DNA of 64,000 nt from an uncultured Gemmatimonadales bacterium (lineage in GTDB: Bacteria > Gemmatimonadota > Gemmatimonadetes > Gemmatimonadales > GWC2-71-9), in NCBI GenBank assembly GCA_963815515.1, contig CAWFGP010000001.1, positions 586,378 through 650,377 on the forward strand, read 5' to 3'. Position 1 is the first letter of the stretch. Each line of letters begins with the position of its first letter. Shown in pieces: positions 39,335-59,254 of this stretch. The translations under genes were made by a program, and so were the position numbers. Below the pieces are notes generated by a model. The model searched no databases. It was not told the DNA's origin and was given only the letters and a program-made list of their open reading frames with translations.

Positions 39335-39356
39335 ATTCGAGACCGTCTGCCGATAG

Positions 39357-39495: not shown

Positions 39496-39497
39496 TT

Positions 39498-39548
39498 GAG
39501 ATGGCCCGACTCGAGATAGCCCGACCGAGATAGCCCGACTCGCATAGC
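39498..39548. repeat. 14-15-nt tandem repeat, about 3 copies (GAGATrGCCCGAC)
   Basis: GAGATGGCCCGAC at 39498, GAGATAGCCCGAC at 39513 and 39527, then a partial TCGCATAGC. Confidence 0.8.
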
Positions 39549-39561
39549 TACGCCGCACGAA

Positions 39562-39595
39562 TCACCCGGAACTGCACGTCACCCGGAACTGCACG
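39562..39595. repeat. exact 17-nt tandem duplication (TCACCCGGAACTGCACG x2) directly upstream of the cheY ribosome-binding site
   Basis: Copies at 39562-39578 and 39579-39595, followed by GAGGGGG and GTG 39606. Confidence 0.9.
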
Positions 39596-39605
39596 GAGGG
39601 GGATT

Positions 39606-39968: not shown

Positions 39969-39971
39969 CCG

Positions 39972-41852: not shown

Positions 41853-41863
41853 GGAGAGAGTTC

Positions 41864-42484
41864 ATGGAAGACGTGCGGGGTCTGAAGGAACTGCAGCTCG
41901 ACGCGTTGCGTGAGGTGGCCAACATCGGCGCCGGCCACGCCGCCACGGCGTTGTCGCAGATGACCAACCACACGATCATGATCGCCGTGCCCGAGGTCAA
42001 CGTGCGGCCGCTCGAGGAGGTGACCGACATGGTCGGCCGCCCCGACGAAGTGGTCGCCGCGGTCCTGATGCACATGATGGGCGATCTGACCGGCCGCACC
42101 CTGGTCCTCTTTCCGGAAGGGTCGGCTCGAACGCTGTGTGATATACTGTTCAGGCGGAGTGCCGGGACGACCGGCGAGTTCGGCCCGATGGAGCAGTCGG
42201 GGCTCAAGGAGGCGGGGAACATCCTCGCCAGCGCGTACATGAACGCGCTCAGCGACTTCATGGGCATGATGCTGGTGCCGTCGGTGCCCAGCCTGGTCAT
42301 CGACATCAGCGCCGCCATCCTCACCACCACGTACCTCAACTTCGGCCACGACCGCGACTTCGTCTTCTGCGTCGAGACGTCGTTCCGGGTCGAGGGCGCC
42401 GCGGAGCCGCTGCGCGGCCATTTCCTGCTCCTGCCCGACACACCGTCGCTCAGGGCCATTTTCGACGCCATCCGCCTGCACTGA
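41864..42484 (+). CDS. cheC: CheC-family CheY-P phosphatase
   Basis: LDALREVANIGAGHAATALSQM and SGLKEAGNILASAYMNALS are the duplicated CheC motifs (E-x2-N). Confidence 0.85.
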   Translation: MEDVRGLKELQLDALREVANIGAGHAATALSQMTNHTIMIAVPEVNVRPLEEVTDMVGRPDEVVAAVLMHMMGDLTGRTLVLFPEGSARTLCDILFRRSAGTTGEFGPMEQSGLKEAGNILASAYMNALSDFMGMMLVPSVPSLVIDISAAILTTTYLNFGHDRDFVFCVETSFRVEGAAEPLRGHFLLLPDTPSLRAIFDAIRLH

Positions 42485-42488
42485 TCCG

Positions 42489-45170
42489 ATGCCCGGGCCT
42501 GTCTTGTCGGAGCGCGATCTCGCCGTCCTGCGCTCCTTTGCCCGCCGGATCGACCCGTCCGACGCCGGCGCCCACAACAACCTGGGCGTCCTCTACTATC
42601 AGAAGGGGCTGATCGAGGACGCGATCACCGAGTTCGTCCGCGCGCTGGAGCTCGACCCGCGGATGCAGGTGGCGCAGACCAACCTCGACATCGCCTACCG
42701 CGAGAGCGGCCACTACGACCGCCGCGTGACCGACCTCAAGGAGCGCGTCCGCCGGCAGCCCGAGGATCGCGACGCGCGCTGGGAGCTCGCCCGCGCCCAC
42801 GCGGCCCTCGGCCGCCACGCCGAGGCGATTGCCGAGTTCCAGGCGCTGCTCGCCTGGCAGCCGAGCGACGTGCCGGCCATGCTGCAGCTCGGCCTCGCCG
42901 AGAAGGCGCGGGGCAACCTCGACACCGCCACGGATTGGCTCGCCCGCGCCTGCGCGCAGGACCCGGCGAGCGCGGTGGCGCGTTTCTATCATGGCGAGGT
43001 GCTCTACAACCGGGGCCTCAACGAGCCGGCGCTCGACGCCCTGCGCCAGGCGATCGAGCGCAACCCCGACTACGCCGAGGCGCACTACCTCCTGGCCTTC
43101 GTGTACGGGGACATGGGCCGGCACGAGGACGCTCGCGAGGCCACCAAGCGCGCCATCAAGCTGAATCCGACCCTGGCCCGGGCACAGGCCAACCTCGCGC
43201 TCGATCGCTACCCCCAGAACGGCACCCATGCGGGCGCGCGCACGGCCGACCGCCCCCAGATCGTCGAGGGCGGCGCGCTCGCCCACTACAATCTCGGCCT
43301 GGCCTTCCGGCAGAAGGGCCTGCACGAGGAGGCGCTGCGCGAGTACCGGCTGGCGCTCGACGCCGGCGAAGACCGGCGCATGACGCTCCAGGCCATGGCC
43401 GAGGTCCATCTCCTGCGCCGCGAGCTGCCGGCCGCGCTCGAGCTCTACGACGCGCTGGTCCGCGAGTTCGCCGACTCGCCGAAGCTCTGGAACGAGCGGG
43501 GCGTGTGCCTCCACCAGGCGGGGCGCCGGGCCGAGGCGATCGCGTCGTACGAGCGCGCCGTAGGCGTCGACCCGGGGTACCAGCTCGCCTGGAACAATCT
43601 CGGCGTCATCCGGGCGGGCGACGCGGGCGAGGCCGGCATCGCCGCCTTCCGCCGGGCGCTCGACGGCGAGCGGCCGCTGTTCGCGGCTCGGCTCAACCTG
43701 GGCCTCCTGTTTCTGCAGCGCCACCAGCTCCGGGCGGCGCTCGAAGAGTACCAGGGCGCCCTCGCGGAGCAGAGCGGAAGCGCCGTGGGGTGGAACGGCG
43801 TGGGCCTGGTGCTCATGGAGCTCCGCCGGTTCGAGGACGCGCGCAACGCGTTCGGCCGCGCGGTGGACGCCGACCCGGCCATGGCCGGCGCGCGCTACAA
43901 CCTGAGCTTCATCCTGAGCCAGCTCGGCGACTTCGACGGCGCGCTCAGGGAGACCCGCCGCGCGCTCGAGCTCGAGCCGCTGTACGTCCCCCAGAAGTTC
44001 TCCCTCACGATCGATCTCCAGTACGAGGATCCGACGATCGCGATCGCGCCCGAGCTGGCCGCCGAGGTGGGCGGGGACCAGCTCGCGGGTGAGTTCGCCT
44101 TCGATCCGCCGGCGCTGGATCAGCTCTTCGCCGAGCTGGCTCCCGATGCGCCGCCACCCGGCGCGCACACCGTTGCGGGCGACGCACTCGACCTCGCCCG
44201 GGATTACATCGCGAAGGGACTGCTCGACCTGGCCTCGGCCGAGCTGAGCCGGGCCGCCGCCCGCGGCGCGCCGCACGGCGCCACCGCGGTCCTCCTGGGC
44301 GACATCTTCGCCAAGCGCGGCCTCTACGGCGAAGCGCTCGAGCGCTACCGGGCCGCCCGCGCCGCCGCGCCCGACGATCCCGACGCCACGCTCGGCGAGA
44401 TCCGCGCGCTCCTGTCCCTGGGCTGGGCGGGCGACGCGGCCCCGCTGGCCGACGAGCTCGCGCGCCGCGTGCGCGGCGACGTCGAGGTGCTCGTGGCGCG
44501 GGCGCGCGTGCGCCTGGCCGTGGGTGATGCGCTCGGCGCGCTCGACTGCATTCGCGAGGCGCAGACCCTCGCCCCGGGCCGGCCCGACCTCTTCCATCTC
44601 CAGGCCCAGGTCTCCGCCCGGCTCGGCGACCGCACCGCCGCCCTTGCCGCGTTCAACGCCGCGCTGCACCTCGATCCGTCGCTGGTGCGCGTGTGGTTCG
44701 AGCTCGGCGGAATCGAGGAGGAGCGCGGCAACTGGCCGGCGGCGCGTTCGGCCTACGAGCGCGCGCTCGACCTCCTGCCCACCTACGGCGCCGCGGCATT
44801 GGCGCTGGCCGAGCTGCTGCGGCGCACCGAGACGCCGCGCGCGGCTGTCCACGTGCTCGTCCGCCTGCTCGAGGCGGATCCCTACGAGCTCGAGGCGCTC
44901 ACCGCGCTCGGCCGCGCGCTGCTCGAGGATGGCCGCACCGCCCAGGCGCTCGAGGCGTTCGAGCGCGTGCTGCGGTTCGACCCAGAGCATGCCGGGGCGC
45001 TCTACCACGAGGGCGCGGCGCTCGCCCGCCAGCGGCAGTTCGACCAGGCCGTGCAGGCGTGGGAGCGGGTCGTGCAGCTCGATCCGGGCGGACCGTACGC
45101 CTCGCAGGCGCGGTCCCGTGCGCGCTCCGCGCGCGATCTCCAGCACATCTTCGCGGCTTCGGCGGGCTAG
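42489..45170 (+). CDS. large TPR-repeat protein (893 aa)
   Basis: Repeated 34-aa units throughout, e.g. AHNNLGVLYYQKGLIEDAITEFVRALELDP and AHYLLAFVYGDMGRHEDAREATKRAIKLNP. Confidence 0.85.
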   Translation: MPGPVLSERDLAVLRSFARRIDPSDAGAHNNLGVLYYQKGLIEDAITEFVRALELDPRMQVAQTNLDIAYRESGHYDRRVTDLKERVRRQPEDRDARWELARAHAALGRHAEAIAEFQALLAWQPSDVPAMLQLGLAEKARGNLDTATDWLARACAQDPASAVARFYHGEVLYNRGLNEPALDALRQAIERNPDYAEAHYLLAFVYGDMGRHEDAREATKRAIKLNPTLARAQANLALDRYPQNGTHAGARTADRPQIVEGGALAHYNLGLAFRQKGLHEEALREYRLALDAGEDRRMTLQAMAEVHLLRRELPAALELYDALVREFADSPKLWNERGVCLHQAGRRAEAIASYERAVGVDPGYQLAWNNLGVIRAGDAGEAGIAAFRRALDGERPLFAARLNLGLLFLQRHQLRAALEEYQGALAEQSGSAVGWNGVGLVLMELRRFEDARNAFGRAVDADPAMAGARYNLSFILSQLGDFDGALRETRRALELEPLYVPQKFSLTIDLQYEDPTIAIAPELAAEVGGDQLAGEFAFDPPALDQLFAELAPDAPPPGAHTVAGDALDLARDYIAKGLLDLASAELSRAAARGAPHGATAVLLGDIFAKRGLYGEALERYRAARAAAPDDPDATLGEIRALLSLGWAGDAAPLADELARRVRGDVEVLVARARVRLAVGDALGALDCIREAQTLAPGRPDLFHLQAQVSARLGDRTAALAAFNAALHLDPSLVRVWFELGGIEEERGNWPAARSAYERALDLLPTYGAAALALAELLRRTETPRAAVHVLVRLLEADPYELEALTALGRALLEDGRTAQALEAFERVLRFDPEHAGALYHEGAALARQRQFDQAVQAWERVVQLDPGGPYASQARSRARSARDLQHIFAASAG

Positions 45171-45173
45171 CCC

Positions 45174-46223
45174 GTGGCGCTCGAGGGCACGCTCAAGGAC
45201 CTGCACATTCAGGACGTCTTCCAGCTGCTCGACCTGGGCCGGAAGAGCGGCGTCCTGCGCGTCACGTCCGAGCTGCGGCAGACCGCCGGCACGGTCTGCT
45301 TCGACCGGGGTGGCGTGGTGGCCGCGGCGGTCGGGAGCGACCCGCAGCCGCTCGGGACGCGCCTCATCCGCGCGGGCCGCATCACCGCGGCCGACCTCGA
45401 CCGCGCGCGCGGCATGCAGAACGGCGGCGACGGACGCCGCCTGGGCGACATCCTCCTGGAGCTCGGCGTGGTCACCCGCCGCGAGCTCGACCGCCAGCTC
45501 AAGGCCCAGATCGAGGAAGCGGTGTTCGAGCTGCTGCGCTGGTCGGAGGGCTACTTCCGCTTCGAGGAAGGGGCGCCGTACCACGCGGCGGTGGAGTCGC
45601 CGGTGCGCTTTCCGACCGAGGCGCTGTTGATGGAGGCGGCGCGGCGGATCGACGAATGGTCGCGCATCGGCTCGAAGGTGTCGCACCTGCGCCTGGTGCC
45701 GCGGCTGCCGCCGCCCGAGCAGCAGGGCACCGACACCCTCGACCTGGTCCCCTTCGAGTGGGAAGTGCTGGCCGCCATGGACGGCTCGCGCGATCTCCAC
45801 TCGCTCGCCGAGGTGCTGGGCCGCTCGGAGTTCGAGGTGGCGCGGACGGTGTACGGCCTGACGAACGCCGGCATCGTCGTGCTCGACGATCCGGCGCATC
45901 CCGGCGAGGAAGCCGAGCCTGGCCGCGACCTGGCGGCGCTGCTCGTGCCGGCGCGCGAGGCGCTGGCGCAGAGGCAGTATGATCTGGCCGCCGGCGCTCT
46001 CGAGGAGCTGCTCCGGGCCGACCCGCTCATGCCGGAGGCGTGGCGGCTGCTCGGTGTCTGCTACGCGGCGCTCGGCCGCCACAGCGAGGCGCTCGACTGC
46101 TGGGCCTCGTGGAGCCGCCTCGGGACCCGGACGCCCGGCGAGGAGTCGGAGAGCGCCACGGTGGAGCACCTGCGCCAGTCGGTGGAGACGATTCTGAAGG
46201 AGCTGGAGCGCTATCGTGACTGA
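45174..46223 (+). CDS. PATAN/DUF4388-domain protein with C-terminal TPR
   Basis: N-terminus LEGTLKDLHIQDVFQLLDLGRKSGVLRV...GTVCFDRGGVV...LGDILLELGVVTRRELD...EEAVFELLRWSEGYFRFEEG is the DUF4388 pattern. Confidence 0.75.
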   Translation: MALEGTLKDLHIQDVFQLLDLGRKSGVLRVTSELRQTAGTVCFDRGGVVAAAVGSDPQPLGTRLIRAGRITAADLDRARGMQNGGDGRRLGDILLELGVVTRRELDRQLKAQIEEAVFELLRWSEGYFRFEEGAPYHAAVESPVRFPTEALLMEAARRIDEWSRIGSKVSHLRLVPRLPPPEQQGTDTLDLVPFEWEVLAAMDGSRDLHSLAEVLGRSEFEVARTVYGLTNAGIVVLDDPAHPGEEAEPGRDLAALLVPAREALAQRQYDLAAGALEELLRADPLMPEAWRLLGVCYAALGRHSEALDCWASWSRLGTRTPGEESESATVEHLRQSVETILKELERYRD

Positions 46224-47091
46224 CGACATCCGCGCGCTGACGACCAGGATGGCCGAGGAGCCCGGGAGCCTCGCGTTCCTCGAGCTCGCCGAGGCGCTCC
46301 GCCGCCGGGGCCAATTGGAGGCCGCGTTCAAGGTGGCGCGTGGCGGGCTGTCCCGGTATCCGGGTCTCGCCGACGCGCACGATCTCATGGCACGGGTGCT
46401 GAGCGACCAGGGCGACCTGGCCGGCGCCTTCGACGCCTGGTCCTCGGTCCTGCAGCTCGATCCGATGCGGACCAGCGCGCTCAAGGGGATCGCGTTCCTC
46501 TATTTCCGCGCGGGCGATACCGCCGCGGCACTCGATCACCTCCAGCGCGCCATGGACGTCGACCCCGACGATCCGAGCATCCGACAGGCGCTTGGACGGA
46601 TCGGTGCCACGCGGTCGGAGCCGGCAGCCGTGCAGGAGGCCGCCACGGGCCCGTCATCGCGAGCGACGGGTCTGCCGTCGCGAGAGTCGGCCGCGGGTGC
46701 CGAGGCGCCGTCCGCACCGGCGTCCGCCGGACGCGCGGCCGGCCCCTTCGACGGCATCGATGGCGGGGAGCGCGGCCTGCTCCTGGTCGACGCCAATGGC
46801 CTCCGCCTGGGGGGCGCGCTGGCATCGGCTGACGGCGAGGAGGCAGGCGATCGGGTCGCGGCGCAGCTGGCCGGCGTCTCGCGGGAGGCGGCCCGGGCCA
46901 CGCGGCTCCTCGGCCTCGGAAGCTGGCACGCCATCGCGATCGAATGTCCCGACGGACACCTCGTGCTGGCGCAGTCCAGCGCGGACACCGTGCTGCTCGC
47001 GAGCCGCGATCACTCGATTCCGATCGGCCGGGTGGGGCTCCTGGCCGAGCGCGCGGCGCGGGCCGCCCGCGCGTGGCTGGAGACTCAGTGA
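46216..47091 (+). CDS. TPR + Roadblock/LC7-domain protein
   Basis: The N-terminal ~125 aa are TPR (FLELAEALRRRGQLEAAFKVARGGLSRYP...), followed by an Ala/Ser/Pro linker. C-terminus GLLLVDANGLRLGGAL...AAQLAGVSREA...WHAIAIECPDGHLVLAQSSADTVLLASRD is a Roadblock pattern. Confidence 0.65.
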   Translation: MTDDIRALTTRMAEEPGSLAFLELAEALRRRGQLEAAFKVARGGLSRYPGLADAHDLMARVLSDQGDLAGAFDAWSSVLQLDPMRTSALKGIAFLYFRAGDTAAALDHLQRAMDVDPDDPSIRQALGRIGATRSEPAAVQEAATGPSSRATGLPSRESAAGAEAPSAPASAGRAAGPFDGIDGGERGLLLVDANGLRLGGALASADGEEAGDRVAAQLAGVSREAARATRLLGLGSWHAIAIECPDGHLVLAQSSADTVLLASRDHSIPIGRVGLLAERAARAARAWLETQ

Positions 47092-47438
47092 TGACGACGA
47101 CCCAGGACGCGCTCGACCGCGTGACGCGCGTGCCCGGTGTCCGCGGCGCGCTGGTCGTGGGAGCGACGGACGGCCTGGTCGTGGCGCAGCAGCTCATGGA
47201 CGGCATCGACGGCCAGGCGGCCGCCGCGCTCACGGGGAGCCTGGTGAGCCGGCTCGGGCGGACCGCCGAGAGCGCCGGGCTACGCCCCCCGGCCTTCGTC
47301 CAGCTCCGTGGCGAAGCGGGCAGCATTCTCGCGGCCCCCGGGCCCGACGACCTGGTGCTCGTCGCGGTCGTCGGGCCGGATGCCAACCTGGGCCTCGCCC
47401 GGCTGGAGATGATCGAGGCGGCGGGACGGCTGGCCTGA
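47091..47438 (+). CDS. Roadblock/LC7-domain protein (MglB-like)
   Basis: 115 aa. LDRVTRVPGVRGALVVGATDGLVVAQQL...AAALTGSLVSRL...VQLRGEAGSILAAPGPDDLVLVAVVGPDANLGLARLEM. The ATG overlaps the upstream TGA. Confidence 0.75.
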   Translation: MTTTQDALDRVTRVPGVRGALVVGATDGLVVAQQLMDGIDGQAAAALTGSLVSRLGRTAESAGLRPPAFVQLRGEAGSILAAPGPDDLVLVAVVGPDANLGLARLEMIEAAGRLA

Positions 47439-47899
47439 TGCGGGCACTCGAGCCCTGGGTGGTGCAGCCGCTGGAGACCTTCCTCGCCGAGAGCGCGGCC
47501 CGGCTCACGCTGCTCATGACCTCGTCGGGGCAGGTCGTGGCGCAGCACGGCTTCAGCCGCTCGCTCGACGTCATGACCGCGGCGGCCCTGGGCGCCGCCA
47601 TCGTGGCCTCGACCGAGGAGCTGGCCCGCCTGATGGGCGCCTCGGGATTCGAGGCGCTGGTGCACAACGGCCAGCGCCAGAGCTGCCTGCTTGCCGCCTT
47701 CGCCACGCCGCGCGGCCGCTGGATCGGCCTGGTGGTGTTCGGGCCCGAGACGTCGGTGGGGATCGTGCGGCTGTTCTTCGACCAGATGGTTCAGCAACTC
47801 GCCGCCGTCGCGCCGCGGGAACAGCCGCAGGTCCCGATGTTGGCGGAGAACTTCGAGACCGAGCTCGACGCCAGCCTCAAAGCTCTCTTCGGACGGTAA
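47438..47899 (+). CDS. Roadblock/LC7-like protein (third paralogue)
   Basis: 153 aa. ARLTLLMTSSGQVVAQHGFSRSLDVMTAAALGAAIVAST...LVHNGQRQSCLLAAFATPRGRWIGLVVFGPETSVGIVRLFF. The ATG overlaps the upstream TGA. Confidence 0.6.
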   Translation: MRALEPWVVQPLETFLAESAARLTLLMTSSGQVVAQHGFSRSLDVMTAAALGAAIVASTEELARLMGASGFEALVHNGQRQSCLLAAFATPRGRWIGLVVFGPETSVGIVRLFFDQMVQQLAAVAPREQPQVPMLAENFETELDASLKALFGR

Positions 47900-47904
47900 C
47901 CGGC

Positions 47905-48507
47905 ATGTCTCTCGTCAACTTCACCGCGCGCGAGATCACCTGCAAGCTCGTGTACTACGGACCGGGGCGGTCCGGCAAGACCACGAACCTGCAGTACGTC
48001 TACGGACGGGTGCCCGAGAGCCGGCGCGGGCGGATGGTCTCGCTCGCGACGCAGACGGACCGCACCCTGTTCTTCGACTTCCTGCCGCTGGAGCTGGGGA
48101 CGATCTCCGGGTTCACCACCAAGTTCCAGCTCTACACCGTCCCGGGCCAGAGCTACTACAACGCCACACGCAAGCTGGTGCTCCAGGGCGCGGACGGCGT
48201 CGTCTTCGTGGGCGACAGCCAGGCGCGCCGGTTCGACGACAACCTCGAGAGCCTGCAGAATCTGCAGGACAATCTGCTGGCGCAGGGCGTCGACATCCGC
48301 CAGCTCCCGGTCGTCTTCCAGTACAACAAGCAGGACCTGCCGCGCGACCTGATCCTCTCGCACGACGAGATGGACGACGCCCTCAACTTCCGCGCGGTCC
48401 CGAGCTATCCGGCGGACGCGCTGCACGGGACCGGGGTGTTCGAGACCCTGCGCAGCATCTCGGAGCTGGTGCTCAAGCGCCTGGCGGTGGGGAGCCCGGT
48501 CGCGTGA
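47905..48507 (+). CDS. mglA: MglA-type Ras-like small GTPase
   Basis: Near-collinear with the Myxococcus MglA sequence as I remember it. REITCKLVYYGPGRSGKTTNLQYVY (P-loop), TDRTLFFDFLPLELG (switch I), FQLYTVPGQSYYNATRKL (switch II PGQ) and FQYNKQDLP (NKxD). Confidence 0.92.
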   Translation: MSLVNFTAREITCKLVYYGPGRSGKTTNLQYVYGRVPESRRGRMVSLATQTDRTLFFDFLPLELGTISGFTTKFQLYTVPGQSYYNATRKLVLQGADGVVFVGDSQARRFDDNLESLQNLQDNLLAQGVDIRQLPVVFQYNKQDLPRDLILSHDEMDDALNFRAVPSYPADALHGTGVFETLRSISELVLKRLAVGSPVA

Positions 48508-50480
48508 CCGTCACGCTCAACCCGCTCTACCGCTTCGACACCCTCATCGTGGGCGCCGCCAACCGGCTCGCGGTGACCGCGGCGAAGGCCGTCGCCGAGT
48601 CGCCGGGGACGGTGTACAACCCGCTGTTCATCTACGCCCGCCCTGGGCTGGGCAAGACCCACCTCCTGATGGCCATCGGGCATGCGGCCCGGGCCATCAA
48701 CCCGCGGCTCACGGTCGAATATCTCACGCTCGACGAGTTCGTCGAGGCGTTTCACGCGGCCATCGCCGCGGGCCACGGTGAGGCATACCGGAAGCGGTTC
48801 CTGGACGTCGACGTGCTGCTGGTGGACGACGTGCAGTTCCTGACGCACCGGCGTGAGATGCAGGCGGAGCTGCTGCGGCTGACCGATGCGCTGCAGACCA
48901 CCAACCGCCAGATCGTCCTCACCAGCGACCGGCCACCTGCCGAGATCGAGGCGCTGGACGAGCGGCTCATCCGGCGGTTCGCGGGCGGGCTCATCATCGA
49001 CGTCGCGGCGCCCGACTACGAGACTCGCGTCGCCATCCTGCGCCGCAAGGCCGAGGAGCGCCGGGCGGGGTTCGGTGAGGCCGTCCTCGAGGCGGTGGCC
49101 TCGCTTGCCATCGACAACGTGCGCGAGCTGCTGGGCGCGCTCAACCGGCTCATCGCGTTCCAGGCGGTGAGCGAGCAGGCCCTCGGCCCCGAGCAGGCCC
49201 GCATGCTGGTGGGGGGCGAGGTGGAGACGTCGGAGCCCGCCGCGCCGGCGGCCCAGCCGGTCGTGGAGCCCTCGCCGGCCGCGGCCTCCGCCGAGCCGTC
49301 GGAGTTCGACGACTTTCTCTCCGAGATCGCCGCCACCGTTGCCCAGCAGGTCGACGCCTGGCGCGGCAAGGTCACCGCCGCCGTGCTGCGCTGGCAGGGT
49401 GAGGGGTTCCGCACCGCCCAGCTCGAGGCGCTGCTGGCGCAGGAGATGGTGAACGACCCCGAGCGCAGTCTCCGAGAGTTCGAGGAGGACGTCGTCCGGC
49501 TCCAGCACATGCAGGCCGAGGCAGCGGCGCTCGCGCCCGAGCTCGCCGGGTCGGCCGCCTTCCGGGACCCGGCCAACCTGGACGCCGCCGAGGAAGCGCT
49601 CCGGCAGGCCCGCGAAGAAGGCGCGCCCCCGCCGGCGCCCTCGCCGCTCTGGCGGCTGGACGCGATGGTCGAGACCGCGGCCAACCGGGTCGTGCTCGAG
49701 GCCGTGCGCACCGTGGCCGCGGAGCCCGCCCACCGGTACAACCCGCTCGTCCTGGTCGGCGGGCCGGCGGTCGGCAAGACCCACCTGCTGCACGCGCTCG
49801 GCAACGCGCTCGCCGAGCGCGGCGGCCCGGTGGCCTGCCTCAGCGCGCCGGAGTTCACCGGCGAGTTGATCGAGGCCATCGACCGCGACGCGATCGCCGG
49901 CTGGCGGGCGCGCTACCGCCGGGCCACGGCGTTCCTGCTCGACGACGTCCACCTCATCGCCGCCAAGGACCGCACGCAGGACGAGCTGTTCGTGCTGTTC
50001 AACGCGCTGATCGATGCGGGCCGGCAGCTGGTGTTCACGTCGGCTGCGCCGCTCGACGAGCTCACCGGCGTCGAGCCCCGGCTGCGGTCGCGCCTCGAGG
50101 GCGGCCTGGTGGTCGAGCTGTCGCCCCCCGACGCCGCCGTGCGGGAGCGCGTCCTGCTGCGCGATCTCGGGTCCAAGCTGGGCACGGCCGATCCCCAACT
50201 CGCGGCCTACGTCGCCTCGCGCCCCGCCGATTCCGTCCGCGCGGCGCAGGCGCTGCTGCAGCGCGTGCTCGAGGCCGCGGCCGCCCAGGGCGTCACCCCG
50301 AGCGCCGCCTTCGCGCGCGAAGTGATCGAGGGCCAGACCCCGGCGCCCGCGGCGGCGAAGCGTTCCTCGAGCCGGTCGAGCGGCCTGGTGGCCCCCGGCG
50401 CGAGCGCGACCCGGAGCCGCGAGAAGATGGTGTGGGAGTGGCCCGAGGTGAGCGAGCGCGTGATCGAGGAGTGGCGCTGA
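48504..50480 (+). CDS. protein with two tandem DnaA/Hda-like AAA+ modules and no recognisable DnaA domain I or IV
   Basis: GTG 48504 (GTGA overlap with the mglA stop). Module 1: NPLFIYARPGLGKTHL, VLLVDDVQFL, IVLTSDRPP, RLIRRFAGGL, PDYETRVAILRRKA, NVRELLGALNRL. Module 2: NPLVLVGGPAVGKTHL, AFLLDDVHLI, LVFTSAAPL, RLRSRLEGGL. Confidence 0.85.
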   Translation: MTVTLNPLYRFDTLIVGAANRLAVTAAKAVAESPGTVYNPLFIYARPGLGKTHLLMAIGHAARAINPRLTVEYLTLDEFVEAFHAAIAAGHGEAYRKRFLDVDVLLVDDVQFLTHRREMQAELLRLTDALQTTNRQIVLTSDRPPAEIEALDERLIRRFAGGLIIDVAAPDYETRVAILRRKAEERRAGFGEAVLEAVASLAIDNVRELLGALNRLIAFQAVSEQALGPEQARMLVGGEVETSEPAAPAAQPVVEPSPAAASAEPSEFDDFLSEIAATVAQQVDAWRGKVTAAVLRWQGEGFRTAQLEALLAQEMVNDPERSLREFEEDVVRLQHMQAEAAALAPELAGSAAFRDPANLDAAEEALRQAREEGAPPPAPSPLWRLDAMVETAANRVVLEAVRTVAAEPAHRYNPLVLVGGPAVGKTHLLHALGNALAERGGPVACLSAPEFTGELIEAIDRDAIAGWRARYRRATAFLLDDVHLIAAKDRTQDELFVLFNALIDAGRQLVFTSAAPLDELTGVEPRLRSRLEGGLVVELSPPDAAVRERVLLRDLGSKLGTADPQLAAYVASRPADSVRAAQALLQRVLEAAAAQGVTPSAAFAREVIEGQTPAPAAAKRSSSRSSGLVAPGASATRSREKMVWEWPEVSERVIEEWR

Positions 50481-52096
50481 TGGCGATCAAGGGCAGCCTC
50501 AAGGAGGCCAGTCTCCCGGACGTCATTCAGCTCCTGTTTCTGGGGCGGCGGACGGGCTGCCTCGCGCTCGCCGACCGGCACAACTTCGGCACGATCTATT
50601 TCGAGGAAGGGCACATCATCTACGCCGCGATCGTCAACCGGCGTGATCGGCTGGGCGACATCCTGCTCCGGAGCGGGCGCATCACGCAGGAGCAGCTGCA
50701 GGACGCGATCGCGGCGCAGGCAGGGGACCGGGAGCACAAGCTCGGCGAGATTCTCGTCCAGCTCGGCGTCCTCCCCCGCGAGGAGCTCGAGAGCTACATC
50801 CGGCTGCAGATCGAAGAAGCCGTGTACTACCTGTTCACCTGGATCTCGGGGACGTTCAACTTCGAGGCGGGCATCCGGCCGGAGCTGGAGGACTTCCTCG
50901 TCCGCATCAACCCCGAGTTCCTGCTGCTCGAGGGCGCCCGGCGAGTAGACGAGTGGAGCCAGATCGAGAAGAAGGTCCCCTCGTTCGATCTGATCTTCAC
51001 CGTGGATCCGGCCCACATCGGCGAATCGGCCCCCACGCTGTCGGCCGAACAGCAGCGCCTCGTGCCGCTGCTCGACGGCTCGCGCGACGTGCAGGCGGTC
51101 ATCGAGGAGTCCGGCCTGGTGGAGTTCGAGGTCGGGAAAGCGCTCTACGGCCTGATTACCGCCGGCTTCGCCCATCGGACCGGTACGTCGGCCGCCGCCG
51201 CGCCGAAGGTCCATGACGGCCGGGTCGAGGAGCACCGGAATCTCGGCGTGGCCTTCTACAAGGCGGCGATGCTGGACGAGGCCCTGCGCGAGTTCCGCCG
51301 GGTCGCGGACCTCCGCCCGACCGACGCGAGCGCACCGTTCTACCTGGGGCTGATCGCCCTGCGCCAGGGGCGCTGGGAGGAGGCGATGGCGGGATTCCGG
51401 CAGGCGGCCGAGGGGGCCGGCGGCCGCCCCGCGGCGCTGCACAACCTCGGCTACGCCCTCGAGCGCCTCGGCCGGCTGGACGAATCGGAGACCGCCTACG
51501 GCGACGCCGCCGGCCGGGCCCGGGACGACGCGCGCATCATGCTCGGCTGGAGCGTGGTGGCGCTCAAGCGGGGTGAGCACCAGGTGTCGCAGGGCCGGCT
51601 CGCCCGGACGCTCGAGCTGCTCGGCAGCAAGCCGGCTCCGGCTCTCTGGTACTGGGCCGCCACGCTCGCGAGCGCCGGCCTCGACGACGCGCCCGGCGCA
51701 CTCCGCGCCGCCAAGGCGGGCGTGGCCGCATTCCCGGCGAGCGCCGTGCTTCAGAACAATCTCGCGGTGCTGCTCGAGCTGAGCGGCGACGTGGCCGGCG
51801 CCGAGGCGGCGCTCCGGGCCGCGCTCGCCGAGGATCCGTCGCTGCCACAAGTCTCCAAGAACCTGGCCGACGTCCTCTACCGGAACGGCCGCTACGATGA
51901 GGCCCGCGAGGCCTACGAGCGCGCCGCCAAGCTGGCCCCCGATCTCGGCGACGACCTGTACTTCAAGCTTGGAAACCTGGCCTACAAGCGGCGGGACAAG
52001 TCGGTCGCTCGCGAGAGCTGGAGCCGCGCCACCACGCTGAATCCCGCGCACGAGCTGGCCAAGGCCAACCTCGAGATGCTGGACATGGCCCCGTGA
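50480..52096 (+). CDS. PATAN/DUF4388-domain protein with C-terminal TPR (paralogue of 45174-46223)
   Basis: IKGSLKEASLPDVIQLLFLGRRTGCLAL...GTIYFEEGHIIYA...LGEILVQLGVLPREELE...EEAVYYLFTWISGTFNFEAG, then TPR units (HRNLGVAFYKAAMLDEALREFRRVADLRP ...). Confidence 0.75.
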   Translation: MAIKGSLKEASLPDVIQLLFLGRRTGCLALADRHNFGTIYFEEGHIIYAAIVNRRDRLGDILLRSGRITQEQLQDAIAAQAGDREHKLGEILVQLGVLPREELESYIRLQIEEAVYYLFTWISGTFNFEAGIRPELEDFLVRINPEFLLLEGARRVDEWSQIEKKVPSFDLIFTVDPAHIGESAPTLSAEQQRLVPLLDGSRDVQAVIEESGLVEFEVGKALYGLITAGFAHRTGTSAAAAPKVHDGRVEEHRNLGVAFYKAAMLDEALREFRRVADLRPTDASAPFYLGLIALRQGRWEEAMAGFRQAAEGAGGRPAALHNLGYALERLGRLDESETAYGDAAGRARDDARIMLGWSVVALKRGEHQVSQGRLARTLELLGSKPAPALWYWAATLASAGLDDAPGALRAAKAGVAAFPASAVLQNNLAVLLELSGDVAGAEAALRAALAEDPSLPQVSKNLADVLYRNGRYDEAREAYERAAKLAPDLGDDLYFKLGNLAYKRRDKSVARESWSRATTLNPAHELAKANLEMLDMAP

Positions 52097-52908
52097 CCGA
52101 CGAACTCGCCTTCGCCGCGCTCTCGCGCGAGATCATCAAGGCCAGCGGCTTCGCCGTGGATGCCTACAAGGACAAGTGCATCCGGCGCCGGATCGCGGTG
52201 CGGATGCGCGCCTGCGGCGTGCACACCTACGAGGACTATCGCATGCTCCTGAAGCAGTCGCCCAGCGAGTACGAGCGGCTGCGGGACGCGCTGACCATCA
52301 ACGTCACCCGGTTCTATCGGAACGCCGAGACCTGGAATCTGATCCGGCGCGAGGTCCTGCCGGTCTTGTTCGACCACCGCCGAGACGAGGTGCGGGCCTG
52401 GAGCGCCGGGTGCTCGTCGGGCGAAGAGCCGTACACGCTCGCCGTGCTGGCGGCCGAGCATCTGGACCGCGCCGGCCGGGCCGACGAGCTCGCCCGGCTC
52501 ACGATCGACGCCACCGACATCGATCGCACCAGCCTCGACCGGGCACGGTCGGCCAGCTACCGGAGCGAAGGGCTCACCGAGATGCCCGACGACCTGGCCC
52601 GGCCCTACTTCGAGTCGGCCGGCGACGAGCGACGGGTGATCGACCGCGTGCGGCGCCGAGTCCAGGTCCGGGCGCTCGACCTGAGCCGCGAGGCTCCGCT
52701 CCGGACCGACTACGACCTGATCCTCTGCCGCAACGTCGTGATCTACTTCGACCGGGTCATGCAGGAGCGGCTGTTCCAGACGTTCACCGGCGCGCTGGTG
52801 CCCGGCGGGTATCTCGTGTTGGGCAAGGTCGAGACGCTCTTCGGCGCGGCCCGCGAGCGCCTCACCCTGATCGACCCGCGCGAGCGCGTATACCGGCGGC
52901 CGGCGTGA
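52093..52908 (+). CDS. cheR: chemotaxis protein methyltransferase CheR
   Basis: TINVTRFYRNAETW, VRAWSAGCSSGEEPYTLAVL and DLILCRNVVIYFD. Confidence 0.93.
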   Translation: MTDELAFAALSREIIKASGFAVDAYKDKCIRRRIAVRMRACGVHTYEDYRMLLKQSPSEYERLRDALTINVTRFYRNAETWNLIRREVLPVLFDHRRDEVRAWSAGCSSGEEPYTLAVLAAEHLDRAGRADELARLTIDATDIDRTSLDRARSASYRSEGLTEMPDDLARPYFESAGDERRVIDRVRRRVQVRALDLSREAPLRTDYDLILCRNVVIYFDRVMQERLFQTFTGALVPGGYLVLGKVETLFGAARERLTLIDPRERVYRRPA

Positions 52909-53390
52909 GGGGCGAGATCATCGTGAAGGTCGCCGACCTCCGCTCAGGGACCGGGAACGACGTCCTGGTGACGATCGGCCTCGGGAGCTGCGTCGCAATC
53001 GTGCTGTACGACGCCACGGCCCGCGTCGGCGGAATGGCGCACGTGCTGCTGCCGTCGTCGGCGCTGAGTCGCCGCGACAGCAATCCGGCCAAATTTCCCC
53101 AGACGGCGGTGCCGCTTCTGCTCGAGCAGATGGGGCAGCAGGGTGCCAACGTCCGCCGGATCTCGGCGCGTCTGGTGGGCGGCGCCAGCATGTTCAGCGG
53201 ACTGGGCGCACCGGGCACGATCCAGATGGGTGAGCGCAACGTCGTGGCCTCGCGTCAGGCGCTCCACCTGCACAGTGTGGCCATCATCGCCGAAGCCACC
53301 GGGGGCGACTTCGGCCGCACCGTGCGGCTCTGGGTGGCGGACGGCCGCGTCGAGGTTTCGTCGGTGGCGCATGGTGTCCAAACCCTCTGA
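52905..53390 (+). CDS. cheD: chemoreceptor glutamine deamidase CheD
   Basis: GTG 52905 (GTGA overlap). [16 protein letters not shown]...GGMAHVLLP...GERNV. Confidence 0.9.
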
Positions 53391-54447
53391 CCCCCGGACC
53401 GTCCTGGTGGTCGACGACAGCCCCTTCTTCCGGCGGCTGCTGAGCGACGTGGTGGACGGGAGCCAGGAATTCCGGGTCGTCGCCACCGCGCGGAACGGGA
53501 TGGATGCAGTCCAGAAGGTGCACGATCAGAATCCCGACCTGGTCCTGATGGACCTCGAGATGCCCGAGCTCGATGGCCTCGGCGCCATCGGCTACATCAT
53601 GTCCGAGTCACCGCGCCCGATCGTGGTGGTGAGCTCCTACGCCGGGCCCGGCACCGCGGCGGCCATCCGCGCGCTCGAGCTGGGCGCGGTGGATCTCGTG
53701 GCCAAGGCCGAGGACCGGACCGAGGACGCCCTCACCCGGTTCGGCGAACGGCTGCTCACGGTGCTTCATACGGTGCGGAGTGCCGCCATCCTCCGGATGC
53801 CGATGCTCGCGCGGCCCGCGCGCGGCGCCCATCCACAGGCCCTGTTCGCGCTGCCGGGCCGGGCGCGGCAGTGCGCCGCCATCGCCGCGTCAACCGGCGG
53901 GCCGCGTGCGCTGGCGGAGGTGGTGCCCGCGCTGGGCACGGGGCAGCAGGCCGCGGTCCTGATCGTGCAGCACATGCCACCCAAGTTCACCCACAGCCTG
54001 GCCGAGCGGCTCGCGGCGCAGAGTCATTTCAACGTGGTCGAGGCGCAGCAGGGGACGCCGGTCCTGGCGGACACCGCGTATGTAGCACCGGGGGATTATC
54101 ATATGCGCGTCGCCACGGGCCTCGACGGGCTCCGTCTCGAGCTCGACCAGGAGCCCTCGATCTGGGGCGTCCGGCCCGCGGCCGATCCCCTGTTCCGGAG
54201 CGTCGCGAAGATCTTCGGCCCCCGCGCCGTGGGCGTCGTGCTGACCGGCCTCGGACGGGACGGCGCCGACGGGCTCCGCGCCATCCACGATGCCGGCGGA
54301 GTCGGGATCGCACAGGACCGCGAGACCGCCACGATCTTCGGCATGCCGAGCGCAGCGGCCCAGGCCGGCGGTGTGGATCACGTCCTGCCGATCGGCCGGA
54401 TCGCCGATCGGGTGGGCCAGGAGCTCGGCCGGATGGCCGCCCGGTGA
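53371..54447 (+). CDS. cheB: chemotaxis response regulator protein-glutamate methylesterase CheB
   Basis: Receiver [14 protein letters not shown]...[13 protein letters not shown]. Esterase [21 protein letters not shown] and [11 protein letters not shown]. Confidence 0.93.
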
Positions 54448-54884
54448 GCGCGGCCGTGAAGGGTGGGGTGGGGCACCTGCTGGTCCGCGCCGGCGGCCGG
54501 CTGGTCGGCCTGCCGCTGGATCAGGTGGTCGAGGTCCTCGACCCCGGCACCAGCTTCCCGGTGCCGTCGCTCGAGCCCGCGGTCCGCGGCGTGACCATCG
54601 TGCGGGGGCGGATCCTGCCGCTGGTGCATCTGGGCACGCTCCTGGATGGCGGGGCCTCTCTGCCGGCGCGCACCGACACCGGCGTCCTGGTCGAGCTGGC
54701 CGGCCGCCGGCTCTGCCTGGAAGTCGAGGAGGCCGAGTCGGTCCTGTACGACACAGGGCTCGCCGTGCCGCCGGGCAGCGCACTCCCGTGGGCGGCGGCG
54801 GTCGCCCGAACCGATCGCGGCCTCGTGCCCCTGCTGGACCTCGCCGCGCTGGGCGCGCGCTTCACGGAGACTTCTGCCCCATGA
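54444..54884 (+). CDS. cheW: CheW-like coupling protein
   Basis: GTG 54444 (GTGA overlap). [24 protein letters not shown]...[21 protein letters not shown]...[20 protein letters not shown]. Confidence 0.75.
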
Positions 54885-55351
54885 CGACCACTGGCGACGA
54901 TATCCAGCTCGTGAGCTTCCGGGTCGGGACCCAGGAGTTCGCGTTCGACATCCTCCAGGTCGAGCGGATCCTCCGGCACGTGACCCCCTCGCCGCTGCCC
55001 AAGTCGCCCGACTTCCTCGAGGGCGTGGTTCCCTACGAGGGCGGCGCGGTGCCGGTGGTGGATCTCCGCAAGCGCTTCGACCTCGAGGCGCCCATCCGCG
55101 AGGAGACCCGGCTCATGGTGGTCGACCTCGGCGACCATCGGGTCGGCGTGCTGGTGGACGAGGTGCGCGAGGTGATGCGGGTCGACAGCACTACCATCAC
55201 GGCTCCCGGACCGATGGTGAACGGGCTCGCGGCCGCCTACATCGCCGGCATCGTCACGCGCCCCTCGCGCACGATCATCATCCTGAACGCCCGGAAGCTG
55301 CTCTCCGCCTCCGAACGCACGGCCCTGACCGGCATCGGGAGCGGCCAGTGA
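54881..55351 (+). CDS. cheW: CheW coupling protein
   Basis: ATG 54881 (ATGA overlap). LVSFRVGTQEFAFDILQVERIL...FLEGVVPYEGGAVPVVDLRKRF...VVDLGDHRVGVLVDEVREVMRV. Confidence 0.88.
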   Translation: MTTTGDDIQLVSFRVGTQEFAFDILQVERILRHVTPSPLPKSPDFLEGVVPYEGGAVPVVDLRKRFDLEAPIREETRLMVVDLGDHRVGVLVDEVREVMRVDSTTITAPGPMVNGLAAAYIAGIVTRPSRTIIILNARKLLSASERTALTGIGSGQ

Positions 55352-56217
55352 GCGAGCCCTGGCTCACCGCGCTCCGGGCCCAGTTCCAGGCGATCGAGAC
55401 CCGCCTGGGAACGTCGGCGCAGCCGGGCGACCGTGAGGCGCTCAAGCGGGACATCATCGCCCTCTTCAAGCGGGTGGATGCGGCGCTCGGCGACCTGGGC
55501 CAGATGAAGGAAGACATCCGCGGACTGGTGGAGCGCTACAAGCAGGGCGCGGCGGCGGAAGTCGCCACGGCGCCCCAGTTCACCGGCGCCCGTCCGGCGA
55601 TCCACGCCGACCACCTCGGAGCCTCGACCTACATCGAGAAGGGCTGGAGCCTGATCTCCCTTGGCGACTACGCCGGCGCGATCCAGTCGCTCGAGAAGGC
55701 GCTGACGCTGGCCCCCGGGGAGGTCCAGGCCCAGTCGCTCCTGGGCTGGGCCCAGATGCTGCACGAGGACTACGACGATGCACTCGGCACCTTCTCGCGG
55801 GTCCTGATGAAGGAACCGGCGAACGCGCTCGCGCGCATCAACGTCGGCTACATCTGCCTCAAGAAACGGATCTTCGGCGAGGCCATCGAGCATCTGTCGA
55901 AGGCCATCCGGTTGGACAACGATCGGAAGGCGACGCTCTACGCCCACTACTATCTGGGGTTGGTGTACCTCGAGCGCGAGATGTTCGAGGACGCGCAGAG
56001 CTTCTTTCGGAAGACGCTCAAGCTGGGCCCCAATCTGATCGAGGCATACTTCGAGCTGGGCCGCGCCCTCTGGTTCGCGGGCCAGCGCGACGAGGCGATG
56101 CAGACCTGGGCCGAAGGCCACAAGGCCAACAAGTTCAATCCCTGGGCCAAGCGCTGCAAAGAGATGCTCGACCTGGTCGCGTCGGGAGGTGAGGTCCCGC
56201 GCAACCTGGTCTCCTAG
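55348..56217 (+). CDS. coiled-coil + TPR protein
   Basis: GTG 55348 (GTGA overlap). TPR units IEKGWSLISLGDYAGAIQSLEKALTLAP and AHYYLGLVYLEREMFEDAQSFFRKTLKLGP. Confidence 0.8.
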   Translation: MSEPWLTALRAQFQAIETRLGTSAQPGDREALKRDIIALFKRVDAALGDLGQMKEDIRGLVERYKQGAAAEVATAPQFTGARPAIHADHLGASTYIEKGWSLISLGDYAGAIQSLEKALTLAPGEVQAQSLLGWAQMLHEDYDDALGTFSRVLMKEPANALARINVGYICLKKRIFGEAIEHLSKAIRLDNDRKATLYAHYYLGLVYLEREMFEDAQSFFRKTLKLGPNLIEAYFELGRALWFAGQRDEAMQTWAEGHKANKFNPWAKRCKEMLDLVASGGEVPRNLVS

Positions 56218-56241: not shown

Positions 56242-56265
56242 GTCCCACCGCAGTGCAGGTGGGAC
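56242..56265 (+). terminator. perfect 8-bp stem hairpin (GTCCCACC-gcagtgca-GGTGGGAC) 25 nt after the last gene of the Che operon
   Basis: Read directly from the sequence. No U-tract follows, so its function as a terminator is uncertain. It covers the GTG 56253 start proposed by the ORF track. Confidence 0.25.
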
Positions 56266-57535: not shown

Positions 57536-59254
57536 ATGTTCCTGTTCCGTCTCGTGACTCTGGCCGCCGTCGGGGCCTCGGTACTGTCGCCCCTCGCGGC
57601 ACAGGGCATCCCGCGCGGCTCGCGAACCACGGCCTCGGCCGTGAACACTGCGCCGCGGTTCATGGTGGCCAATCCGTTCGCCTTCGCGGCCGCGGATTCC
57701 GCGCCGGCGGTCAAGATCGGCACCGCCCTCCGCGATGGCGTGAAGGGCATCGTCGGGCGCGACTATCAGGTCATCGAGCAGACCCAGATGAACGAAGCCC
57801 TGACGCAGTACGGCTATCCCAAGGACGCCATCCTGAGCCCGGCGCTCGCCACCACGCTCGCCAAGAACATCCAGGCGCGCTTCGTGGTGAACTCGACCCT
57901 GAACAAGGCCGAGGGCGGGCGCTATGCCGTGACCGCCAGGCTGAGCGGCGTCAGCGACGATGCGGGCAACGTCGTCACACTCACCCAGAACGCTGGCGAG
58001 ACCCCCGAGGCGTTCGGCAAGCGTCTCGCCACGGCGCTGGAGCCCGCGGTCAAGTCGCTGGCCGACGCGAAATCGTGCATCGAACAGCGCACCTCGAAGC
58101 CCGACAAGGCGGTCGATGCGGCGGCCAAAGCCCTCAAGACGCTGCCGAACCACGGGCTCGCCGAGTACTGCCTGGCGCTGGTGGCCGGGGACAAGAAGGC
58201 GCCCCGTGAAGAGGTGGTGAAGCACCTGCAGGCCTCGGCCAAGGGCGATCCGCTCAGCCTCCCGGTCTGGACCGCGCTCGCCACCCAGTACCAGGGCGCC
58301 AACGATACGGCCAACACGCTCGTGGCCTTCAAGCAAATGCTCCGGGTCGCGCCGACCAACCAGAAGCTGCGCGAGGAGCTGTTCAAGTACTTCCTGCAGT
58401 CGGGCCATCCGGAGACCGCGCTCGAGGTGGCCGACGAGGGACTCAAGCTCGATCCGTACAACGCCGACCTGTACGACCTCAAGAGCAACGCCTGCCTCTT
58501 CCTGAGCGACTTCAAGTGCGCGGTCGACGCGTTGGAGACGCTCTACGCCACCGACAGCACCAAGGCGGACACGCTGTTCTTCACCAAGATCAGCGCCGCC
58601 GCCGCCGAGGGCGAGAAGCCCGATACGGTCCGGCTGCTCAAGTGGTCCCAGGTGGGTGCCCGGAAATACCCCGACAACCTGACGCTGCTGGGCTACCTCA
58701 ACAAGGCCTACTCGCTGACCGGGCAGACCGACAGCGTGGTCGCGGTGACCAACCGGATCATGGCGAAGGACACAACGGAGGTGGTGCCAGCGCTGAACGC
58801 CGCCAAGTCGCTGATCGACGCCAAGCGGCCCAAGGAGGCCGTGCCGTTCCTCGACTTCGCCATCAAGCACGGCGATCCGCAGGCCAAGGAAAACGCCGCT
58901 GCGCTGCTCTACACGGGCGCCGCTCCGCTGCTGCAGCAGCCGCAGGACCTGCTCGGCGCGGCCGAGCTGTTGCGGATGGCGGTGGGCGCGGCCAGTCCAA
59001 CCGGCAAGGTGCAGCCGGCCTCGAACTACCTGCTCGGCCTGGCGACGCTGTTCCAGGTCCCGCAGATCGATCCCCAGGCCGAAAAGCAGAAGTCCTGCGA
59101 CCTGGCCCGTCAGGAGGAGACGCTCCTGGGCGAGGCCGAGACCGCGCTGACCGCGGGCCGCGCCGTCAATCAGGAGGCGGTCGACAAGAACCTCGGCATC
59201 ATCAAGCAGTACAAGCCGCGGGTGGCCTCGATGCTCAAGGCCTACTGCAAATAG
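57536..59254 (+). CDS. secreted lysine-rich helical-repeat (TPR-like) protein
   Basis: GGAGG Shine-Dalgarno upstream. Signal peptide MFLFRLVTLAAVGASVLSPLAAQG. Helical repeats, e.g. PETALEVADEGLKLDPYNADLYDLKSNACLFLSDFKCAVDALETL. Confidence 0.7.
   Translation: MFLFRLVTLAAVGASVLSPLAAQGIPRGSRTTASAVNTAPRFMVANPFAFAAADSAPAVKIGTALRDGVKGIVGRDYQVIEQTQMNEALTQYGYPKDAILSPALATTLAKNIQARFVVNSTLNKAEGGRYAVTARLSGVSDDAGNVVTLTQNAGETPEAFGKRLATALEPAVKSLADAKSCIEQRTSKPDKAVDAAAKALKTLPNHGLAEYCLALVAGDKKAPREEVVKHLQASAKGDPLSLPVWTALATQYQGANDTANTLVAFKQMLRVAPTNQKLREELFKYFLQSGHPETALEVADEGLKLDPYNADLYDLKSNACLFLSDFKCAVDALETLYATDSTKADTLFFTKISAAAAEGEKPDTVRLLKWSQVGARKYPDNLTLLGYLNKAYSLTGQTDSVVAVTNRIMAKDTTEVVPALNAAKSLIDAKRPKEAVPFLDFAIKHGDPQAKENAAALLYTGAAPLLQQPQDLLGAAELLRMAVGAASPTGKVQPASNYLLGLATLFQVPQIDPQAEKQKSCDLARQEETLLGEAETALTAGRAVNQEAVDKNLGIIKQYKPRVASMLKAYCK

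Follow-up and report, generated by a model that had tools for sequence, protein, structure and literature searches.

The stretch of DNA analyzed here (the window) comprises 64,000 nucleotides from an uncultured Gemmatimonadales bacterium (GenBank assembly GCA_963815515.1, contig CAWFGP010000001.1, positions 586,378 to 650,377). On its forward strand, inside a Che operon with che genes on both flanks, lies a gene for a 658-residue protein in which the AAA+ domain (domain III) of the replication initiator DnaA occurs twice; we refer to it as the tandem DnaA-III gene. An earlier note, made from the sequence alone, had described this open reading frame (ORF) as a DnaA/Hda-like protein duplicated internally and devoid of a DNA-binding domain, and every motif that it quoted for the two copies is found in the translation. 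The GTG start shares the letters GTGA with the TGA stop of the preceding gene, mglA, as had also been noted, and a Shine-Dalgarno-like GGGGAG lies about 10 nucleotides (nt) 5′ of this GTG, within the 3′ end of mglA. At its other end, the stop codon shares the sequence TGATG with the ATG start of a gene for a PATAN(DUF4388)-TPR protein; this overlap and a conserved C-terminal motif described below had been overlooked. The coordinates of the gene, its parts and its neighbors are collected in Table 1.

Searched against Pfam, the 658-residue protein matches Bac_DnaA in two stretches (E = 8.7e-91). Alignment to the DnaA profile TIGR00362 places residues 4–234 of the first half at profile positions 103–333 of 437 and the second half at positions 101–337; since both alignments are confined to this part of the profile, both copies match domain III only. 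No Pfam family for domain IV (Bac_DnaA_C) or for the DnaA N-terminal domain (domain I) was matched at E ≤ 0.01. The ORF begins 4 residues ahead of the first domain III residue, so that domain I and the linker domain II are absent, and what follows the second copy is only a disordered stretch and an 18-residue motif, with no domain IV helix-turn-helix. The claim that domains I and IV are missing is thus borne out by the Pfam search together with the TIGR00362 alignment limits.

Module 1 carries the Walker A sequence GLGKT (K51), Walker B D108/D109, sensor I D142, box VII R154/R158 and sensor II R207. Module 2 carries GGPAVGKT (K425), D480/D481, R526/R530 and R579 at the corresponding motifs, with an alanine in place of the sensor I aspartate. 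The domain III sequences of DnaA from B. subtilis and from an actinobacterium are 44% and 49% identical to module 1, respectively, and 33–36% identical to module 2. Between the two modules, identity is 33%, which indicates an ancient duplication rather than an assembly repeat.

Among solved structures, the top sequence match is domain III of B. subtilis DnaA (8bv3, E = 7e-56), followed by the Thermotoga and Aquifex DnaA proteins. An AlphaFold2 model of the full-length protein, computed from a 33-sequence family alignment, has a mean predicted local distance difference test score (pLDDT) of 85.8 and a predicted template modeling score (pTM) of 0.47; its best structural match is again 8bv3, with a target-normalized template modeling score (TM) of 0.93 and a root-mean-square deviation (RMSD) of 1.6 Å, and when the modules were compared by Foldseek each matched DnaA domain III at a TM of 0.9. 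A classical double-ring AAA+ protein of the p97/Cdc48 or ClpB type was ruled out by the same comparison (TM 0.23–0.35, RMSD > 20 Å).

Of the profiles compared, that of DnaA fits each half best by a wide margin: TIGR00362 scores 262.6 and 178.8 bits for the two halves, against 74.2 and 83.7 bits for the Hda profile TIGR03420, on which the whole protein scores 152.2 bits (cut-off 194.8). Scores on the HdaA models are about 50 bits, with the cut-off at about 300. The half-by-half comparison that had been proposed as a check on the DnaA/Hda assignment therefore comes out on the side of DnaA, and by these scores both modules belong to the DnaA clade, not to Hda, IstB or DnaC. The IstB (NF038214, 96.2 bits; cut-off 200) and DnaC (NF005931, 32.3 bits; cut-off 357) scores fall far under their cut-offs and were taken to rule out a mobile-element origin; within the window, the gene has no transposase next to it. 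A part in a defense system was likewise set aside, PADLOC yielding P-loop-level matches only.

The two modules had been thought to be joined by an Ala/Pro/Glu-rich linker. This description holds for a weakly conserved, Pro/Ala-rich disordered spacer that follows module 1 and fails for the remainder, a conserved, folded helical middle domain particular to the family, whose consensus includes the motifs DEFGxFLSEV, WRxRV, LRWxxEGxRTxRLExLL and FRDPD. Modeled by itself, the middle domain has a pLDDT of 92.8 and a pTM of 0.76. Comparison of this model to the PDB returned no significant structural match (best E = 3.6), which rules out a known fold in this region and, in agreement with the Pfam search, a cryptic domain IV. 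In the motif at the C-terminus, which is preceded by a disordered stretch, W646 and P647 are near-invariant family-wide. This motif is a putative partner-docking peptide, and the acidic, Trp-rich C-terminal tail is a candidate ligand for TPR repeats.

Compared with DnaA, the tandem protein thus has the same domain III AAA+ fold, with Walker A and B motifs, box VII arginines and a sensor II arginine in both modules, but it has this domain twice, lacks domains I and II and the domain IV helix-turn-helix, has other residues at the positions that contact single-stranded DNA (ssDNA; see below), gains the middle domain and the C-terminal motif, and stands in no origin or dnaN context.

Distribution and conserved neighbors in Gemmatimonadota

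A word-indexed search recovered hundreds of proteins of 650–690 residues, from independent metagenomes, with 76–98% identity over the full length; they are labeled "DnaA/Hda family protein [Gemmatimonadales bacterium]" at NCBI and "chromosomal replication initiator protein" at JGI. An exhaustive search of representatives clustered at 50% identity extended the family to more than 100 full-length clusters, with identities down to 33%, and the same full-length architecture occurs in hundreds of 90%-identity clusters from independent samples. When we scanned one genome per GTDB species using the family-specific middle domain as query (10 sequences), 126 species matched, and the neighborhoods of the best 80 of these loci were surveyed. 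All 80 are from Gemmatimonadota; two contigs among them are labeled otherwise, and one of these has the same length and match coordinates as a Gemmatimonadales contig. An artefact of assembly or gene calling, whether a duplicated segment or two fused genes, is conceivable a priori and in no other respect suggested, and with two halves of 33% identity, one architecture across more than 100 clusters at 50% and hundreds at 90% identity, hundreds of contigs and the same locus in 80 species-level genomes, its probability is negligible.

In every sufficiently long locus among the best 80, the gene order from cheY to rsmH is the same (tblastn). The conserved order is cheW-Y-A-C, TPR, PATAN-TPR, three Roadblock genes, mglA, tandem DnaA-III and a second PATAN-TPR gene, followed by cheR-D-B-W-W, TPR and Peptidase_MA. 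The overlap between the mglA stop and the tandem DnaA-III start measures 4 nt in 62 of 77 loci and 1 nt in a further 13, and the two genes are accordingly translationally coupled in 75 of 77; the overlap of the tandem DnaA-III stop with the PATAN-TPR start is 1 nt in 55 loci. The Ras-like product of the neighboring gene matches M. xanthus MglA (PDB 5ymx) with E = 6e-73 and contains LYTVPGQ, with the TVPGQ G3 motif, as well as DRTLFFDF, with the intrinsic arginine; on the strength of this match and these motifs it is a genuine MglA, as had been proposed.

Searching with a profile of the most divergent members uncovered a second clade, the named matches of which are all Gemmatimonadota, Longimicrobiales included. 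In all six of its loci that we examined, divIVA, a PNP_UDP_1-family gene, ileS, (lspA) and rluD accompany the tandem DnaA-III gene, and in five of the six PATAN-TPR and Peptidase_MA genes follow directly 3′, often with a sigma-54 response regulator gene after them. The sixth has an insertion sequence (IS) element in place of the PATAN gene: at L088:7948-10460, on a 4.0-Mb Gemmatimonadota contig, an IS of the DDE_Tnp_1 type occupies the PATAN-TPR position, and a 250-residue TPR remnant alone remains ahead of Peptidase_MA. No mglA, Roadblock or che gene was found in these six loci. In a low-GC relative, che genes occur along with genes for a TPR and a PATAN protein, and mglA is lacking. The association with MglA therefore stands for the Gemmatimonadales type of locus, where the two genes adjoin and are coupled, and does not extend to the family as a whole: with MglA and Che missing from an entire clade, the universal partner of the tandem DnaA-III protein, judged by gene neighborhoods, is the PATAN-TPR protein, together with Peptidase_MA, and MglA, the MglB-type proteins and the Che pathway are particular to Gemmatimonadales-type loci. 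None of the 80+ neighborhoods contains a replication gene.

The locus very probably also occurs in a cultured type strain, Gemmatimonas aurantiaca T-27. Wuichet and Sogaard-Andersen (PMC4316618, Table S2) list two group-1 MglA genes for this strain, GAU_1115 (with MglB) and GAU_1409, and give the neighborhood of the latter as "PATAN>MglA>-PATAN>"; the unnamed "-" gene, left without comment in that work, stands at the position of the tandem DnaA-III gene.

Both ATP sites are retained in the Gemmatimonadales type (n = 109 sequences, the window protein included). In module 1, the Walker A lysine and the first Walker B aspartate are each present in 108 of 109 sequences, the sensor II arginine in 106 and the arginine finger R158 in 84; the counts for module 2 are 105 (Walker A), 104 (Walker B), 103 (sensor II) and 102 (arginine finger R530). 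Judged by these counts, both sites are under selection. In the clade without MglA (n = 120), all catalytic residues of module 1 are invariant (120/120). In module 2 of the same proteins, the Walker A lysine is replaced by Ala, Gly or Pro (1/120 Lys-like), the Walker B DD by HG, and sensor II is lost, yet box VII R526 and R530 are retained in 120 of 120. Loss of the nucleotide site with retention of the arginine finger is what would be expected of a subunit that completes or regulates the ATP site of its neighbor, and suggests that module 2 pairs with module 1.

Two positions in the initiator-specific motif, V211/R245 in E. coli, which we take to correspond to I190/K222 in B. subtilis, contact ssDNA in DnaA. 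The residue equivalent to I190 is His or Arg in one clade and Thr, Ala or Glu in the other; at the equivalent of K222, one clade has Arg (73 of 108 sequences), Gln or His, and the other has Gln in 119 of 120. With these contacts replaced and domain IV missing, DnaA-type DNA binding has probably been lost.

These replacements bear on two alternatives in which the protein would still work on DNA. It could form ssDNA-coating filaments that handle DNA which a machine related to type IV pili takes up or moves, given that DnaA domain III binds ssDNA in the form of a helical filament that depends on ATP (PDB 3r8f, which is among the structural matches of the model) and that relatives are linked to pilus genes (see below). 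We give this a slim chance: the H-motif hydrophobic residue is now His, Arg, Thr or Ala, the basic residue of the B-motif is the Gln just mentioned in nearly all members of one clade, and competence genes were not seen in the neighborhoods. It could also be the actual replication initiator of the genome, or a second one, as the JGI label and a whole-protein TIGR00362 score of 437 bits (cut-off 343.9) would have it. That score exceeds the cut-off because two domain III matches are summed, which is also how annotation pipelines come to mislabel the protein as a chromosomal replication initiator. The dnaA gene is by convention placed at gene 1, whereas the probable T-27 locus lies beside GAU_1409, far from gene 1. 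With domains I and IV absent, the ssDNA-contact residues replaced and the gene set within a Che/MglA operon rather than a dnaN or origin-type context, hardly any credence is left for an initiator.

Related systems and a proposed function

In Myxococcus xanthus, MglA/MglB and the Frz system switch the pole of the type IV pili, and the locus described here likewise groups genes for an MglA orthologue, for Roadblock/MglB-like and TPR proteins and for a Che pathway. The DnaA-derived ATPase that is coupled to mglA in the present loci finds no mention in the papers on MglA and PATAN systems that we consulted. PATAN genes near mglA were noted by Wuichet and Sogaard-Andersen (PMC4316618), the MglA effector SgmX is found together with PATAN proteins (PMC11580455), and a preprint (bioRxiv 10.1101/2021.06.11.447907) describes cyanobacterial PATAN-domain regulators as interacting with the type IV pilus motor. 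The cyanobacterial proteins PatA, PixG and TaxP1 share the PATAN domain with the proteins encoded here and act downstream of Che-like systems; in the present loci, however, PATAN is joined to TPR repeats instead of a receiver domain and is always paired with a tandem DnaA-III protein.

Two uncharacterized proteins of 1900–2000 residues in the representative list (P0197 and P0198) combine an N-terminal MshEN domain, which is the N-domain of pilus ATPases, with two DnaA-III modules. They share with the tandem protein the presence of two such modules in one polypeptide without domain IV, but their spacer is about 1300 residues long and they have neither the middle domain nor the W.WP tail; by this architecture, they are a separate, second family of DnaA-III proteins without domain IV. 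P0197 (1990 residues), from another lineage, is encoded in a type IV pilus cluster with pilD, pilB, pilT, pilC and pilS/pilR (GCA_030620115.1, contig JAUXFG010000024.1, L084:4309-15923), where four adjacent genes encode MshEN and/or DnaA-III domains.

We put about an even chance on the tandem DnaA-III protein having no part in replication and serving as an ATP-gated switch or scaffold in a PATAN/MglA polarity system. The family derives from DnaA, of which it retains domain III alone, in two copies, and to which it has added a helical middle domain and an acidic, Trp-rich C-terminal peptide; its members would no longer act on DNA. The two modules would form an internal AAA+ pair that serves as an ATP/ADP-gated switch or an assembly platform, with module 1 providing a fully conserved ATP site and module 2 an arginine finger; in Gemmatimonadales, module 2 would have a working ATP site as well. 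Its partners would be Peptidase_MA and the PATAN-TPR protein to which it is translationally coupled, joined in Gemmatimonadales by MglA, all three Roadblock proteins and an entire Che pathway. Their joint output would be the setting or switching of a polar process, for which motility by type IV pili or polar growth and division are the likeliest candidates. The architecture, the conservation of residues, the loss of DNA-binding determinants, the synteny and the overlaps between genes are observed; the pairing of the modules, the physical contacts with PATAN-TPR and MglA, and the cellular output are what we infer from these patterns. By analogy, the combination of MglA, Roadblock and Che genes follows the logic of the Myxococcus polarity/Frz system, and this context points to polarity signaling; the MshEN-fused DnaA-III modules in a pilus cluster may be an independent hint of a link to pili.

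Several observations weigh against a polarity switch. At a pTM of 0.47, the placement of the modules relative to each other is not confidently predicted. Type IV pilus genes were not found within the 64-kb window, and the neighbors in the MglA-less clade (PATAN-TPR, the peptidase and often a sigma-54 regulator) indicate no particular process. The locus has divIVA-ileS-rluD on one side and the dcw cluster on the other, which fits a role in the cell cycle equally well. Finally, with module 1 44–49% identical to DnaA, mixed oligomers with DnaA are conceivable.

The last two of these points also favor the main competing explanation, an Hda-like regulator that would insert R158 or R530 in the ATP site of DnaA, or cap DnaA filaments, and so tie initiation to polarity or cell-cycle signals received via PATAN-TPR, MglA and Che. 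Hda is a protein of DnaA domain III alone that acts by its arginine finger, and as such is a precedent for the use of this fold as a regulator rather than an initiator; it and HdaA share with the tandem protein the descent from DnaA, the restriction to domain III, the lack of DNA binding and a retained arginine finger, both fingers being conserved in 120 of 120 sequences of one clade here. Hda, however, is a single module of about 230–250 residues with an N-terminal clamp-binding motif, whereas the tandem protein has two modules and extra domains and is encoded among polarity and chemosensory genes. Domain III begins with its N-terminal consensus, MxxxLxPxxxFxTFVVG, and inspection of this N-terminus in the family consensus revealed no β-clamp-binding motif of the QL[SP]LPL type. 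Together with the sub-threshold Hda score, the far better fit of the DnaA model to each half, the lack of replication genes in the 80+ neighborhoods and the joining of related DnaA-III proteins to MshEN in a pilus cluster, these differences make an Hda-like regulator unlikely.

A more far-reaching version of the polarity switch, to which we tentatively assign somewhat less than an even chance, is that the ATP switch of DnaA was duplicated, stripped of its DNA-binding determinants and fixed phylum-wide as the core of a PATAN/MglA/Che polarity machine, with module 2 as a dedicated arginine-finger donor. Such a protein might still communicate with canonical DnaA and thereby connect polarity with replication.

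A literature search returned no description of a tandem DnaA-III family, in agreement with the earlier remark that no characterized precedent was known; most subscription journals lay outside this search, and the result is therefore provisional. Tandem DnaA-III appears to be an uncharacterized, Gemmatimonadota-wide AAA+ family of the DnaA/Hda kind in a non-replicative context. The interpretation given in the earlier note is supported in its checkable parts, and co-option of the DnaA switch for signaling or scaffolding is, as before, something we infer, now from synteny, conserved ATPase residues and replaced ssDNA contacts. To our knowledge, AAA+ proteins of the DnaA clade (DnaA and Hda) are known only from replication initiation and its control. 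If co-option is correct, this would be the first such protein to act outside DNA replication, as far as the literature found shows; the nucleotide switch of DnaA would be reusable for cell-biological signaling, and an unexpected component would be added to MglA/PATAN systems, the outputs of which are, as far as we know, poorly understood beyond Myxococcus and cyanobacteria. In practice, quality checks of Gemmatimonadota genomes may score the protein as a single-copy marker that is present in duplicate. The family is experimentally tractable through the T-27 type strain, with its probable locus beside GAU_1409.

The gene cluster and other features of the window

The cluster is preceded on its 5′ side by yggS, a purine-nucleoside-phosphorylase-family (PNP_UDP_1) gene, ileS, lspA and rluD. 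Neither dnaN nor a second dnaA lies within the 64-kb window.

Table 1 The tandem DnaA-III gene, its parts and the surrounding gene cluster (positions in the window)
Feature	Position	Strand	Basis
Tandem DnaA-III gene, 658 aa	48504..50480	+	ORF translation, Pfam/NCBIfam profile matches
Module 1, DnaA domain III, aa 5-235	48516..49208	+	sequence and structure matches
Pro/Ala-rich disordered spacer, aa 239-267	49218..49304	+	family alignment, pLDDT about 40
Family-specific helical middle domain, aa 268-375, ~110 aa	49305..49628	+	family alignment, model
Module 2, DnaA domain III, aa 385-610	49656..50333	+	profile match, residue mapping
Conserved C-terminal motif EK(M)VW.WP...(D/E)R(L/V)IEE, aa 640-657	50421..50474	+	family alignment
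cheW	38897-39334	+	profile match
cheY	39606-39968	+	profile match
cheA	39972-41852	+	profile match
cheC	41864-42484	+	profile match
Large TPR protein, 893 aa	42489..45170	+	
Upstream PATAN(DUF4388)-TPR protein	45174..46223	+	
TPR-Roadblock fusion protein	46216..47091	+	
Roadblock/LC7 protein, 116 aa	47088..47438	+	
Roadblock/LC7-like protein, 154 aa, candidate MglB/MglC-type	47435..47899	+	
mglA, Ras-like polarity GTPase, stop overlapping tandem DnaA-III start	47905..48507	+	
PATAN(DUF4388)-TPR protein, ATG overlapping tandem DnaA-III stop	50480..52096	+	
cheR	52093-52908	+	
cheD	52926-53390	+	
cheB	53371-54447	+	
cheW	54444-54884	+	
cheW	54869-55351	+	
TPR protein	55348-56217	+	
Peptidase_MA_2 protein, third member of phylum-wide triad	56253-57089	+	
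TPR protein, 572 aa, last conserved cluster gene ahead of rsmH, ftsI (dcw cluster)	57536..59254	+	

Ahead of mglA, three Roadblock/LC7 genes stand in a row (46216-47899, +), one of them TPR-fused; the canonical arrangement is one mglB. The Che set (38897-55351, +) consists of three CheW proteins and CheA, CheY, CheC, CheD, CheR and CheB. Methyl-accepting receptors are the usual substrates of CheR, CheB and CheD, and the conserved cluster contains no gene for one.

The ileS gene of the window is divided between two ORFs that overlap and differ in frame (33704-34681 and 34524-37013, +) that match positions 2–184 and 184–407 of the Pfam tRNA-synt_1 profile, respectively; in six related loci, ileS is one ORF of 1050–1074 residues, and the split is likely a frameshift, either a sequencing error or real. 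Elsewhere in the window, a 950-residue ORF with a coding-like G+C content at third codon positions of 0.87 (18155-21007, +) has no Pfam family at E ≤ 1e-4, and a hybrid histidine kinase (5851-7875, −) combines an N-terminal, ethylene-receptor-like ETR1_N domain (E = 4.9e-33) with the PAS, HisKA, HATPase and receiver domains that follow it.

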